Below are positions 28,754 to 34,053 of a stretch of 62,581 nt of DNA, one piece after another. This stretch comes from a virus. The notes under the pieces are model-generated. The model was given only the letters and a program-made list of their open reading frames with translations, had not been told where the DNA came from and ran no database searches. A program made the translations under genes and the position numbers. The stretch's first letter is position 1; every line of letters begins with the position of its first letter. The stretch lies in IMG/VR virus record IMGVR_UViG_3300045988_172680. The stretch is one strand, 5' to 3'.

Positions 28754-29365
28754 TTACTCCTTCGGCACAGCGGCGTGGACCTTAGCCAACGGCAGGACAG
28801 CAGGGACAGTAATGCACTTCTCCAGCGGCCAGCCTTCGGCCATACGCTTGCGGACAGCCTGCTCGGAGATACCGTGTTCAGACATACTGGAAAGCACGGT
28901 CTTGATGTCGGCGTCAGGGAAGCGATACAGGACGGCAGCCTCGAAGCTCTTGCCCTGCCGGGCGGCTCGCTCCGGGTCCCACCCACGAGAGATGCGACTG
29001 TTGAACTGCGCCTTGGTGATGCCGGACTGCTTGAGCCATTCCATGATGGGCATACCATAGCGCTTGTCGAGGTCTACGGACACAGCCCTTCTCGGCGTCT
29101 TCAATGCGTCTTCCATGGACCAGCCGGATGCCAGCCGGTTGCGCAACGTGAGGTAGTTGATACCGTGTTCCCGCGCCAGCTCTCGCAGGTTCGTCACACT
29201 TCGCCCATCCGGCGCAGTATATGCGGCACTGACTGTGTACGGCGCGGTGAAACTTTCTTCTATGGACTTCTCGTTACGCAGCCTGGCAAGGATGATTTTG
29301 GGCGGCACACCGAACTCGGTAGCGAGCTGCTGCAATGTTTTGGATGTGTCGATGTAAACCTTCAT
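28754..29365 (-). CDS. DNA-binding protein with four tandem HTH-like repeats
   Basis: Four repeats of about 45 aa. Three show the pattern G(I/V)..xxL..R(L/M)..GW.xE.A (LRELAREHGINYLTLRNRLASGWSMEDAL, IMEWLKQSGITKAQFNSRISRGWDPERAA, LSSMSEHGISEQAVRKRMAEGWPLEKC); the first is degenerate (LQQLATEFGVPPKIILARLRNEKSIEESF). Confidence 0.45.
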   Translation of the reverse strand: MKVYIDTSKTLQQLATEFGVPPKIILARLRNEKSIEESFTAPYTVSAAYTAPDGRSVTNLRELAREHGINYLTLRNRLASGWSMEDALKTPRRAVSVDLDKRYGMPIMEWLKQSGITKAQFNSRISRGWDPERAARQGKSFEAAVLYRFPDADIKTVLSSMSEHGISEQAVRKRMAEGWPLEKCITVPAVLPLAKVHAAVPKE

Positions 29366-30805: not shown

Positions 30806-33331
30806 CTAGACGATTTCGAAGGTCGTCCCTATCTCCGCTTCACACGCCACAGGCAAACCATTGAGAGCAGGCGGGACTATGGACATGTAGTGGAGCATCT
30901 GCTGCTTCACATACTCGCCCTGCTCTTCCGGCACGACAGATGCCCAGGCGTCGTGGATGTTGCAGGCCAGCTTGATTCCGGCCTCATCCATCCGACAACC
31001 TTGATACATAATAACGTCAACGAAGGAAAGACCCTGAACGAGATTATTTGTAAACGCCCCCCCATAAATATGGGTAGGAATTTTGGAAGCACCCTTGTAA
31101 GTATCATAGAGGAACTGCCACTTTCCCCGGTCGTTACGCTCGGCACGCAGGCCGGGGTAGCGCAGGATGTAGCCGCTCGGGAACCGGACAGACGGCACAC
31201 ACAGGTCAGTCCTGGGGCCCACCGGCATGATGCCGAAGGTGTAGATGTCGTTGTTGGGACCGCCGAAGGTCCCGGATTCGCCACGCAGCATGGCCTCCAG
31301 AACATTCTCTGCCGTCTTCCAGAAGGCGACGATGTTGGGATGTGCTGCCCTGTAGATGCCGTGGGCATAACGAGCCAGCTCATGGTGACGGTCGAGGTCT
31401 TCGTGCAGGTGGATTCCCTGCCGCAGCAGCGTGTTGCTATATTTTGTGTGGCCTACACCGTATCCACAATTATGCACCATCAGTACCGTCCCCCCCTGAC
31501 GTATCAGGAAACGGTTGTTCGGGCCACAGTTCTTCAGGTCGTACACCTTTTGTATGCAATCGGTATCGGATGGCTCCGATTGCACACGCTGCTCTGTACT
31601 GAAACTACGAATGCCCTGTACGTCGTCAGCTTGCACTGAATCACCAGCCCACTGTTTGGCCGAGTTCAAATACAGGGGTTCGGCTATCAATTCGGCTGCC
31701 GTTCTCCATGAGGACCCGTCGAATACCAAATGGTCTGGAGTCATGTTTACCCCATCCACGTCAATTGTGTTCCTCAACCCGTTGTAAACTAGTCCTTCGT
31801 GTCTCACCCATGATACACCATCCCAGACTTTATCATTGGAATGGATTGTATCAATGCGTTTCCACCCCGTATCTGTCAATACCTCCACCGTACCCGCAAG
31901 ACACGACAGGATACCGGTCTTTCCGGTGTTACGGTACATTTTCATCTTCTTGTCGCCAGACTTGGCCCCAGCCTTGATGTCCTGCCACGGCACGCCGAAG
32001 ATGGTCTCGGCCAGTTCCGAATACGGGTCACGTCCTTCACGGAACTGCGTGAGCAGCCCGACCTCATTGGCCACGAAGGCCAGTCCCCGTGCTTCAATCT
32101 GGGAAGAGTCGCAGGCCACGACGACATGGCCTTCCGGGACCTTGATGGCTTGCCGGAGCTTGCGCTTGGAAGGGTCCCGCTTGCTCAGGTTTTGGAACTG
32201 GAGCTTGTCGGTCTTCGTCCCGGCGTCGGCGGAAGCACCGGCGGAGTACCGCCCCGTATGCGCCAGCCACGCCCCGAGCATGATGGGCAGGGGTTTATGC
32301 ATCCGGGCAAACTTGAGCAAGGTCTCAGCCCTGCTGCGGTCGATGCTGCTGTTAAGTTGCAACCGGGTACGCACGAGAAGCGCGACACGAGGGTCGGGAT
32401 GGTCTTGCATGAGGACGAAGTCCACGTCGGTCTTGCTGAAGGCATAGGTCATCACAGGCTGCATGTTCTCCAGCTCTTCAGCCGCTCCCGGAACCCCTGC
32501 ATCCGCAGCGAGCTGGAGCTTTTCCCTCTTGGTCTTGGTCTTTGCCGCACTCTCTTTGAGCGGCGGTTCAATACCCAGGGAGCGCAGCATACCGGCGAAC
32601 TTGTCAGCCGAACGCAGCGCAGCCAGCATGTCTGCGTTGGTTTGGAACGAGAACATGGCCATGAGTTCTTGCCGTGCCTTGTCCGCAGCAGCGTCGAGGT
32701 CGGACAGGTATTCCAGCAGCAGGTCTTCATCCAGCACGAACGAAGGCTCCGTAGCCATACGCGCCGTGATGGACATGAAGCGCAGAGCATCAGGCGTCAT
32801 GTAAGGCATCATGGCCTGAGCATTGCGATAGCATTGCCCGGCGTCGTCTTTACAGTATTGGATGAAGAACGCCCGCTCTTCCGGCTTGAAGTCGTCCGGC
32901 CATTGCTTGTGGTCACTGACGACGGTACCGGCAGCCTTGTGGCCGTTGCCGAGGAACTCGGTGAGGGCGGCATGGCTCTCACGACACACACGGGATAAGC
33001 CTGTCCACCGCATCATGGCGATGGTGTCCCATATTTTCCGGGGATGGAAGTCGAAGAACTCCGACAGGATGAGACTGTCGAAGCCATGCATGTTATGCCC
33101 GCACCAGGCAACATCATGCGCATCCAGATTTTTGAACGTCGTTTGTAGACGCTCATGCTCGACATCGGAACAGTCGACGCAGCAGGCGCCATTGGACATG
33201 GCGAAAGCGCAAAGCTGCGGAGCAAAGTTTTCGTTGCGGACATACTCGATGGGACCCATCTTCGACAGCGTGTACGTCTTGCTGTCCCAGTAGGTCTCGA
33301 AGTCTATGACGACAAGTGTGCTTTCAGGCAT
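30806..33331 (-). CDS. Family A DNA polymerase (T7-like, with 3'-5' exonuclease) interrupted by a mini-intein in motif B
   Basis: Exo I VVIDFETY. Motif A ACDSSQIEARGLA. Motif B MYRNTGKTGILS, then intein, then CGYGVG. Motif C NIHDAW. Start trimmed to the ATG with a GGAG RBS. Confidence 0.85.
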   Translation of the reverse strand: MPESTLVVIDFETYWDSKTYTLSKMGPIEYVRNENFAPQLCAFAMSNGACCVDCSDVEHERLQTTFKNLDAHDVAWCGHNMHGFDSLILSEFFDFHPRKIWDTIAMMRWTGLSRVCRESHAALTEFLGNGHKAAGTVVSDHKQWPDDFKPEERAFFIQYCKDDAGQCYRNAQAMMPYMTPDALRFMSITARMATEPSFVLDEDLLLEYLSDLDAAADKARQELMAMFSFQTNADMLAALRSADKFAGMLRSLGIEPPLKESAAKTKTKREKLQLAADAGVPGAAEELENMQPVMTYAFSKTDVDFVLMQDHPDPRVALLVRTRLQLNSSIDRSRAETLLKFARMHKPLPIMLGAWLAHTGRYSAGASADAGTKTDKLQFQNLSKRDPSKRKLRQAIKVPEGHVVVACDSSQIEARGLAFVANEVGLLTQFREGRDPYSELAETIFGVPWQDIKAGAKSGDKKMKMYRNTGKTGILSCLAGTVEVLTDTGWKRIDTIHSNDKVWDGVSWVRHEGLVYNGLRNTIDVDGVNMTPDHLVFDGSSWRTAAELIAEPLYLNSAKQWAGDSVQADDVQGIRSFSTEQRVQSEPSDTDCIQKVYDLKNCGPNNRFLIRQGGTVLMVHNCGYGVGHTKYSNTLLRQGIHLHEDLDRHHELARYAHGIYRAAHPNIVAFWKTAENVLEAMLRGESGTFGGPNNDIYTFGIMPVGPRTDLCVPSVRFPSGYILRYPGLRAERNDRGKWQFLYDTYKGASKIPTHIYGGAFTNNLVQGLSFVDVIMYQGCRMDEAGIKLACNIHDAWASVVPEEQGEYVKQQMLHYMSIVPPALNGLPVACEAEIGTTFEIV
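31469..31903 (-). mobile_element. Mini-intein (145 aa, Hint domain only) inserted in DNA polymerase motif B
   Basis: Block A CLAGTVEVL (Cys1). Block B MTPDHLVF. Blocks F/G VYDLKNCGPNNRFLIRQGGTVLMVHN. The +1 extein residue is Cys (CGYGVG). No homing-endonuclease domain. Confidence 0.8.
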
Positions 33332-33378
33332 GATGCATCTCCAAAGGGAGGGGCTGCTGCCCCTCCCTCGCATACTGG

Positions 33379-34053
33379 TTAGACGAAGTATTCCTTGAAG
33401 GTGGGGTTCTGCGCAGGGAACTTGACGTTGACCTGCTTGCGCTGCTCAGGCGTCAGGTCGGTGACGAACTTGATGAATCCCTCGGGCAGATTGGACATGG
33501 TCGCAGCGTCGCCGATGTTGTTACGCATCGTATCCATGGCATACAAGGCGAGTCCGACGTTGTTACCGGTGAGCGGCCACCCCTCGATATTCAGCGGCAC
33601 GAACTCATCCTGCTCACTGTCGTAAGTACACAGCAGAGTCCCCGTAGACTGGGCAGCAGGCGCCGGGTCAGTAAGCTGGGCAGCGGGAGCCGGAGCAGGC
33701 TGGGCCACGGGAGCCGGAGCAGGCTGGGCCCCGGGAGCCGGAGCAGGCTGGGCCCCGGGAGCCGGAGCAGGCTGGGCCCCGGGAGCCGGAGCAGGCTGGG
33801 CCCCGGGAGCCGGAGCAGGCTGGGCCACGGGAGCCGGAGCAGGCTGGGCCCCGGGAGCCGGAGCTTCGTCATCGGCCTTCTTTTTACGCGGCGCACGTTT
33901 CTTCGGAGCCGCAGCCTTCAGCGCTTCGACTTCTTCCCGAAGCGCCTGGACATCCGCATTCAGCGTCTTGATGCGGTTGTTCATCTTGGGAAGGATGATT
34001 TTGAGGATGACCTCGATGGGAGGCATGTTCTGTACGTCTTCTTGGATACTCAT
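33379..34053 (-). CDS. Hypothetical protein with a (PAPGAQ/PAPVAQ) repeat linker (224 aa)
   Basis: RBS AAGGAGGGTATAG. N-terminal coiled coil, Lys-rich, then 30-bp DNA repeats. Confidence 0.45.
   Translation of the reverse strand: MSIQEDVQNMPPIEVILKIILPKMNNRIKTLNADVQALREEVEALKAAAPKKRAPRKKKADDEAPAPGAQPAPAPVAQPAPAPGAQPAPAPGAQPAPAPGAQPAPAPGAQPAPAPVAQPAPAPAAQLTDPAPAAQSTGTLLCTYDSEQDEFVPLNIEGWPLTGNNVGLALYAMDTMRNNIGDAATMSNLPEGFIKFVTDLTPEQRKQVNVKFPAQNPTFKEYFV

Follow-up and report, generated by a model that had tools for sequence, protein, structure and literature searches.

A 145-residue insert interrupts the family A DNA polymerase gene of a phage represented by IMG/VR virus record IMGVR_UViG_3300045988_172680 (62,581 nucleotides; this whole stretch of DNA is referred to here as the window). 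The insert, at window positions 31469 to 31903 on the minus strand, is in frame and lies within the O-helix (motif B) of the polymerase; we assign it, with a probability of roughly 0.9, to the class-1 mini-inteins. A first-pass annotation, made from the sequence without database searches, had described an insert of 145 residues at these coordinates, flanked by KTGILS and CGYGVG, and translation and indexing reproduced that description exactly.

Boundaries of the insert and its host polymerase

The polymerase open reading frame (ORF) spans 30806..33373 on the minus strand, 855 codons counted from the first ATG. Searching about 5.8 billion proteins yielded 120 polymerases with 90-98% identity (P0001-P0120), which were sorted by length. 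All of these homologues start at the Met of the sequence MPEST, at window position 33331, and the precursor is therefore counted as 841 residues. The 14 extra codons upstream of MPEST (33332..33373, minus strand; MRGRGSSPSLWRCI), which begin at an in-frame ATG at 33373, are probably not translated. The insert (435 nucleotides) corresponds to residues 491-635 of the 855-residue reading, or 477-621 of the 841-residue protein, and sits between Ser476 and Cys622 of the latter. It reads CLAGTVEVLT…TPDH…VYDLKNCGPNNRF…VLMVHN, preceded by …KTGILS and followed by CGYGVG.

Intein-free versions of the same gene fix the boundaries of the element. Alleles of 696 residues (e.g., P0069), 95-98% identical, are shorter by exactly 145 residues and read …YRNTGKTGILS/CGYGVG… (a slash marks each junction), so that 696 = 841 - 145; the junctions of empty and occupied alleles also coincide at the DNA level. 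The insertion is thus in frame, at a conserved site that is contiguous in intein-free homologues. The same mini allele was found in other samples (P0001, with 49 member sequences, and P0002, with 33). The G+C content of the insert is 50.3%, versus 58.0% in the remainder of the gene, with a local dip at 31500-32000. When the insert was removed in silico, the Pfam DNA_pol_A match bridged the junction (residues 378-489 of the 696-residue form), whereas with the insert left in place the match ended upstream of it. The first-pass claim that the element splits motif B of a family A polymerase is supported.

A hand alignment matches R-N-T-G-K-T-G-I-L-S/C-G-Y-G with Klenow R754…K758…F762…Y766-G767, which puts the insert inside the O-helix, one residue past position 762 (Leu here). 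This placement draws on reading by eye and on what is well established about motif B. One of the 696-residue empty alleles, P0071, has …GKSCVLSCGYSVGHH… in motif B in place of …GKTGILSCGYGVGHT…, and this change may be a target-site variant.

The host protein is a divergent member of its family. Pfam PF00476 (DNA_pol_A) matches it with an E value of 1.6e-14 (54-56 bits, against a cutoff of 34.3), PHROG 17 ("DNA polymerase") with an E value of 1.2e-46, and PHROG 7766 ("DNA polymerase") over residues 659-831, and it aligns to Klenow and Taq as far as motif A. All three polymerase motifs are present: A (DxSQIE), B (RxxxKxxx[FYL]xxxYG), and C (HDE-like). In the N-extein, motif A reads …VVACDSSQIEARGLA…, and the extein ends in …YRNTGKTGILS; the C-extein contains a YGGAFTNN-LVQGLSFVD motif and motif C, …NIHDAW…. 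The nearest polymerases from isolates are those of Pseudomonas phages phiR18 and KPP25, at only 29% identity, and a megablast search of the gene against isolated phages gave no match. The phage belongs to an uncultured lineage of about 62-65 kb. The coordinates of the gene, the exteins, and the intein blocks are collected in the table.

Table. Features of the polymerase gene and its insert (window coordinates; A1, alignment of 60 intein relatives; AF2, AlphaFold2)
Feature	Coordinates	Strand	Basis
Family A DNA polymerase precursor gene	30806..33331	-	841 codons + stop; ORF list, Pfam, PHROG, MPEST homologues
N-extein, 476 aa	31904..33331	-	3'-5' exonuclease-like N-terminus, motif A, first half of motif B; translation
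C-extein, 220 aa + stop	30806..31468	-	Second half of motif B, CGYGVG…; translation, PHROG 7766
Class-1 mini-intein (probable), 145 aa	31469..31903	-	CLAGTVEVLT … GGTVLMVHN; exact absence in 696-aa alleles, AF2, Foldseek, profile
Block A, Cys1 nucleophile and first β-strand, CLAGTVEVLT	31874..31903	-	C1 invariant in A1; V8 and T10 nearly invariant
Block B, T55-P-D-H58 (TxxH)	31730..31741	-	T55 and H58 invariant in A1
Linker, residues ~86-117	31553..31648	-	Place of the nested HNH gene in larger alleles; DNA alignments, six-frame translations
Block F, V120-YDLKNCGPNNRF-132 with conserved Asp122	31508..31546	-	D122 and G127 invariant; R131 and F132 nearly invariant
Block G, LMVH144-N145, and first C-extein residue, Cys+1	31466..31483	-	N145 invariant; H144 at least 90% conserved

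Splicing residues, fold, and competing interpretations

The residues that define a class-1 intein are all present: Cys1 and the TxxH of block B, the block F Asp, the terminal His-Asn, and Cys+1. Residue conservation was judged on an alignment of 60 intein relatives (A1), in which C1, T55, H58, D122, and N145 are invariant. An HMMER search of 1.84 billion representative proteins gave 2568 relatives at E≤1e-3, of which 1259 reached E≤1e-10, and the best 149 of the 2568 (P0121-P0269) were parsed into 205 intein copies. Cys1 is present in 202 of these; an HN terminus was recorded in 149 and Cys+1 in 152, both of which are lower bounds, since the boundaries were parsed automatically and many of the others are boundary offsets. 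Copy lengths are bimodal, about 110-170 or about 250-350 residues. Cys1, TxxH, HN, and Cys+1, the intein blocks picked out at first pass, were thus all found, and they are conserved in relatives.

The predicted structure agrees with the residues. An AF2 model built with 87 family rows had a predicted local distance difference test (pLDDT) score of 92.6 and a predicted TM score of 0.85. About the top 45 Foldseek matches to this model in the Protein Data Bank (PDB) are almost all inteins or Hint domains (including 7cfv, 6rix, 6zgq, 6frh, 6qaz, 2in9, and 4kl5), with TM scores of 0.5-0.6 and, for most, a probability at or near 1.0, so model and search agree on a Hint (horseshoe β) fold. The A1 profile matched the Spl DnaX mini-intein (7cfv) end to end, with an E value of 1e-5, and the split intein of Neq Pol, NEQ068, with an E value of 2e-5. 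A phmmer search of the PDB with the single intein sequence gave a weak match to NEQ068 only (E = 0.26).

No endonuclease accompanies the splicing domains in this allele. Searches of the 145-residue element in all six frames gave no match to the HNH profile (see below) or to a PHROG endonuclease domain, as the first-pass annotation had anticipated for an endonuclease domain, and frame +2 of the intein, the frame of the endonuclease gene in larger alleles, is broken by stops, including in the linker. Elsewhere in the window there was no HNH signal, apart from a weak match to repeats in an unrelated ORF. We call the element a mini-intein because it is 145 residues long and has no endonuclease signal in any frame; neither an endonuclease domain nor an endonuclease gene lies between its splicing domains. 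A group I intron or other RNA element was considered and ruled out, as no Rfam family reached its gathering threshold and no tRNA was found in the whole window.

Several observations weigh against this assignment. No Pfam or NCBIfam intein or Hint family matched the 145 residues at E≤1, and PF01079 touched a single one of the 60 relatives, with an E value of 0.007. AF2 run on the single sequence was uninformative (pLDDT 39), and the linker is poorly modelled, with block means of 67-83 over residues 91-120. Block F has Asn (NNRF) where a diverged sister intein, the type B described below, has His (NHRF). The motif B positions were assigned by hand against Klenow, and the automatic alignment stops just short of motif B. 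Splicing of this allele is, finally, something that we infer, and there is a small probability that the window holds a splicing-dead allele in a defective phage. As to the first of these points, the failure of Pfam and NCBIfam is a limit on the sensitivity of curated models, a match to which is no defining biochemical feature, and we do not take it as evidence of absence, the profile and fold searches having succeeded. The first-pass annotation had put forward a Hint-profile search as its check and the lack of a Hint hit as part of what would count against it. That check failed, but absence of a Hint hit is an unreliable ground for rejection in this clade, because Pfam and NCBIfam miss a real intein.

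Among the alternatives, the one that fares best is that the insert is a decayed, splicing-incompetent relic, and the polymerase accordingly dead, in a phage that is either defective or rescued by another polymerase. The deletion of the endonuclease gene, a late stage of the homing cycle, would suit a relic, as would the block F Asn in place of the sister intein's His. However, the catalytic residues are all intact, as is the precursor ORF, and the window's mini allele and a second one (L085) differ in their N-splicing part by nine synonymous and three nonsynonymous codon changes. The allele also occurs in several samples, on contigs with a normal gene neighbourhood, and the stretch examined on either side of the gene showed no second polymerase. 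We regard a relic as improbable; the intact catalytic set and the mostly synonymous divergence of the two mini alleles would instead support an intein that splices.

It is less probable still that the 145 residues are retained in the mature enzyme as a lineage-specific, nonsplicing loop or domain in the fingers of the polymerase. Insertions of this kind are frequent in divergent phage PolA proteins, and the lack of any Pfam or NCBIfam Hint or intein match speaks for such a loop. Yet this insert splits the O-helix between the Lys and the YG of motif B, has a Hint fold whose matches are almost exclusively inteins and Hint domains, and carries a complete set of splicing residues, which is conserved whatever the host or the insertion site. 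Homologues of the insert are also found in unrelated proteins and in other motifs of polymerases; it is precisely missing from near-identical alleles, and its G+C content marks it as foreign within the gene. Equally hard to credit is a cleavage-only Hint domain, like bacterial intein-like (BIL) or hedgehog Hint domains, that would leave a two-piece, unligated polymerase: although BIL2, Vint, and hedgehog Hint domains appear among the lower-ranked Foldseek matches, the best matches are true inteins, the full intein set with terminal HN and Cys+1 is a combination missing in BIL and Hog domains, the interrupted helix must be contiguous, and intein-free alleles show both exteins as one protein.

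We conclude that a class-1 mini-intein is the best description of the insert, and on standard class-1 protein splicing its removal would proceed as follows. The polymerase would first be translated as a precursor, in which Cys1 would form a thioester at the Ser-Cys1 bond; attack on this thioester by Cys+1 would give the branched intermediate, and cyclization of Asn145, assisted by His144, would release the intein. An S-to-N shift would then join …GKTGILS-CGYGVG…, with the junction peptide …TGILSCGYGVGHTK, to give an active enzyme of 696 residues. For annotation, the polymerase is one gene with an intein, neither a fusion nor an oddly long enzyme.

Allele series, nested HNH gene, and extent of the clade

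The homologues form a series of alleles at this single site. Their lengths are 696 residues (empty), 841 (insert of 145 residues), 847 (151), 1007 (311), and 1073-1082 (377-386), and the large inserts fall into two diverged types, A (CLAG…MVHN) and B (CFAGDTEVL…WCHN), with G+C contents of 46.8-49.7%, versus 57.6-58.1% in the exteins. At the DNA level the inserts form a deletion series of 386, 311, 151, and 145 residues and the empty site, in which every deletion is a multiple of three. It runs from a full-length allele (L001) through one with a 225-nucleotide deletion inside the HNH gene (L087) and one with 151 residues (L086) to the 145-residue inserts of L085 and the window, with L004 empty. 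DNA alignments with L001, L087, L086, and L085 identify the 3' part of the window's linker as a diverged remnant of the tail of the HNH gene. As shown by this comparison, the window's intein is an in-frame deletion derivative of a larger allele with an out-of-frame HNH gene. A nested, out-of-frame endonuclease ORF between blocks B and F, present in L001, L002, and L006-L008, is absent in the window, which we therefore class as a degenerate descendant rather than a current nested-gene member, because only a remnant of the HNH gene is kept. Empty, mini, partly deleted, and full alleles, the last of two diverged types, coexist at one site within a single phage population, which offers a natural, sequence-resolved snapshot of the homing cycle.

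The nested gene is best seen in L001 (1881-2945) and L002 (4521-5489), where ORFs of 320-360 codons, conserved between the two, lie in frame +2 of the intein; PHROG 374 ("HNH endonuclease") matched this frame with E values of 9e-26 and 1.5e-34, respectively. An in-frame endonuclease domain in these alleles was considered and rejected: the central ~240 frame-0 residues of their inserts (386 residues in L001, 377 in L002) have no Pfam match and are mutually unlike. The polymerase frame remains open across the nested gene, yet is unconserved there. The nested layout recurs in a third lineage of phages, which is more distant (L006-L008). Between L006 and L008, differences at intein codon positions 1, 2, and 3 number 1, 1, and 9 in the N-splicing part, 6, 30, and 7 in the centre, and 0, 0, and 5 in the C-splicing part; these counts show which frame is under selection, with the pattern following the frame of the HNH gene in the central part, where position 2 of the intein is the wobble position of that gene. 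The open host frame is no by-product of HNH coding, because none of 100 alternative forward frames among 50 free-standing HNH relatives was free of stops (median, 13.5 stops). A conserved ATG that arises from Ser-Trp codons of the intein, with GGGATGG, from Trp-Asp-Gly codons, upstream, is a candidate start of the nested ORF.

Pfam searches with the nested proteins matched no HNH family, and their assignment as putative HNH enzymes draws on PHROGs and on a weak match to I-HmuI. Nested and free-standing relatives share the HNH-like motif DRIDNNGNYEPGN (alignment A3), with an invariant Arg in place of the first His (DH) of I-HmuI.

The flanking extein carries a further mark of the element. Of the 66 occupied genes among the 120 close alleles, 65 have His-Thr at extein positions +7/+8 (window 31445..31450, minus strand); only 2 of the 51 empty genes share this pair, and the rest carry HH, HV, YV, SA, and others. 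This tight linkage suggests co-conversion during homing, and selection for empty sites that resist cleavage would give the same pattern.

The intein belongs to a large clade. Starting from the nested HNH protein, 551 relatives were found in IMG/VR; most are free-standing, and several lie out of frame within ORFs of 900-1150 codons that code for PolAs of other lineages and, probably, for a large terminase. A search with a degenerate block F DNA pattern gave at least 120 viral stretches (IMG/VR loci L088-L207) with 69 contiguous intein copies; because this sample is biased by the seed pattern and by the limited number of stretches taken, percentages taken from it are indicative only. Among the matches listed, all 62 copies longer than 170 residues have an out-of-frame match to the HNH profile (E values from 1e-13 to 1e-71), 49 in frame +1 and 13 in frame +2, and none has one in frame; the other seven copies are minis. 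Inteins at the motif B site use frame +2 and those at other sites frame +1, again among the matches listed. An in-frame HNH was seen in just 1 of the best 149 of the 2568 representative relatives. At least 12 further loci of the same intein family have a split layout, in which an ORF stops after the N-splicing domain, overlapping an HNH ORF, and a new ORF then opens with the C-splicing domain; these include L110, L116, L162, L147, L095, L129, L140, L145, L105, L093, and L120. The homing endonuclease gene of this clade appears to be systematically out of frame or split off.

Insertion sites recur as well. Two lie at motif B, GKxxxLx/C…HN/CGYG and GK[TV]/C…HN/C[IV]LGLG, the former occupied in many unrelated metagenomic PolAs; one lies at motif A, DxSQIE/C…SN/CR; and another, YGGKLxEN/C…HN/CxQAxARD, is unoccupied in the window's polymerase (…YGGAFTNN-LVQGLSFVD…). 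Many metagenomic family A polymerases have two intein copies. The first-pass view that inteins in motif B of phage PolA are rare is not supported, given the 2568 representative relatives at E≤1e-3 and the recurrence of the site in many unrelated metagenomic PolAs. The class-1 mini-intein type and the out-of-frame endonuclease architecture are both known. No description of an intein at the motif B site of a family A polymerase was found in the literature searched, although absence there is no proof. Because standard domain libraries miss the clade, many metagenomic PolAs are probably mis-measured or misaligned across motifs A and B and a QG-AAD-like motif.

Lacking an endonuclease, the mini-intein would no longer home by itself, and it may persist because precise loss is rare and splicing preserves polymerase function. 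It may also hitch-hike, in co-infections, on the HNH enzyme from full-length alleles. We advance only tentatively, as a possibility with the odds against it, that the mini-intein is no dead end but a nonautonomous hitch-hiker, copied into empty genes after a co-infecting phage has cut them with its out-of-frame HNH enzyme, and that its clade is the first large intein family whose endonuclease gene is obligatorily out of frame or split off. Such copying could occur because the site and the flanking extein are shared with co-circulating full-length alleles. If this were true, the step at which a free-standing endonuclease invades a mini-intein would have been captured as a stable, widespread state and not as a rare accident. 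With the out-of-frame architecture apparently the rule in this family, the model in which the splicing domain comes first and the endonuclease gene invades later becomes experimentally tractable. Small phage mini-inteins with Cys1 and Cys+1 are candidate parts for protein engineering.

The surroundings of the gene are conserved. The order PolA, PD-(D/E)XK nuclease, two small ORFs, a helix-turn-helix (HTH)-repeat protein, and an SNF2 helicase is kept in all related contigs (60-65 kb). The HTH-repeat protein is a 203-residue ORF (28754..29365, minus strand) between a VRR-NUC-like gene and the SNF2 helicase, with four or five HTH-like repeats (…GINYLTLRNRLASGWSMEDAL…). These give weak matches, none of which reaches the threshold, to several HTH families of Pfam and to the DNA-binding region at the C-terminal end of the HNH profile; no nuclease motif is present in the protein. 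Directly upstream of the polymerase, a small gene (33379..34053, minus strand) contains a 24-nucleotide tandem repeat at 33675..33864 (7.9 copies, 96% match) that encodes a Pro/Ala-rich (Q)PAPAPGA(Q) array, and the local G+C content reaches 0.73.

Comparison with known systems

The splicing domains of Spl DnaX (7cfv), MchDnaB-1, Ssp DnaB, gp41-1, and Mtu RecA are alike in their horseshoe Hint fold and their size, about 130-150 residues. The window's intein has in common with such solved class-1 mini-inteins Cys1, the block B TxxH, the block F Asp, the terminal His-Asn, Cys+1, and the lack of an endonuclease domain, at a sequence identity of only 10-19%; inteins of the 7cfv type are the best profile and fold matches. 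Unlike them, it is invisible to Pfam and NCBIfam and is hosted by the O-helix of a family A polymerase, and it has, in the model, a predicted family-specific helical segment after block B (residues 69-90).

For the nested gene, the only solved match to the profile is I-HmuI (PDB 1u3e), the HNH enzyme of a group I intron in the family A polymerase gene of SPO1. The match is very weak (E = 0.24), although it lies precisely at the HNH motif. I-HmuI also comes from a mobile element of a phage PolA gene, but it is encoded by an intron and not nested in an intein. A further difference is the invariant Arg of the present family, which takes the place of the first His (DH) in the I-HmuI motif.

In the "fractured genes" described by Dassa et al. 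(2009; PMC2677866), the intein is split and a free-standing endonuclease gene separates its two halves. As at the split loci of the present clade, the endonuclease gene stands, unfused, at the endonuclease site of the intein. The differences are that the fractured-gene endonuclease is VSR-like, and that the window and its close relatives have a continuous intein frame, from which splicing in cis is expected.

The idea of an intein endonuclease that is encoded out of frame or antisense is traced in later papers to Gorbalenya (1998). For inteins of actinobacteriophages, an endonuclease VII-like gene has been described in "frame 3", and noncanonical forms, 63 among 784 inteins, were called rare (bioRxiv 10.1101/2025.01.02.630785); an insertion in phage ShiLan was found to contain a hidden HNH (PMC11855218). 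As to origin, the authors propose that a free-standing endonuclease gene invaded a mini-intein (bioRxiv 10.1101/2025.01.02.630785; PMC11855218). These are likewise phage inteins or in-frame insertions with an endonuclease in another frame. The actinobacteriophage cases are reported as rare, whereas the out-of-frame endonuclease, only recently published as such, appears to be the rule in the clade described here, in which all 62 long copies sampled have it; the hosts of this clade are for the most part family A polymerases from uncultured phages, and the ShiLan insertion is not a recognised intein.

A close parallel is the cyanobacterial dnaX intein, in which a LAGLIDADG gene lies in frame +2, full, mini, and empty alleles coexist, and selection depends on the frame (bioRxiv 10.64898/2026.09.14.751524). 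The solved DnaX mini-intein is also the best PDB match of the clade. The two systems differ in that the dnaX endonuclease is of the LAGLIDADG type and its host the bacterial Pol III tau/gamma subunit, while here a gene of the HNH family is nested in an intein of phage PolA, of which the window has only the mini form. In both the dnaX intein and the full-length relatives of the window's intein, a +2-frame endonuclease gene lies between the splicing domains, and the intein frame stays open across it and reads as disordered filler. They are alike, too, in having full, mini, and empty alleles within one population and purifying selection that depends on the frame.

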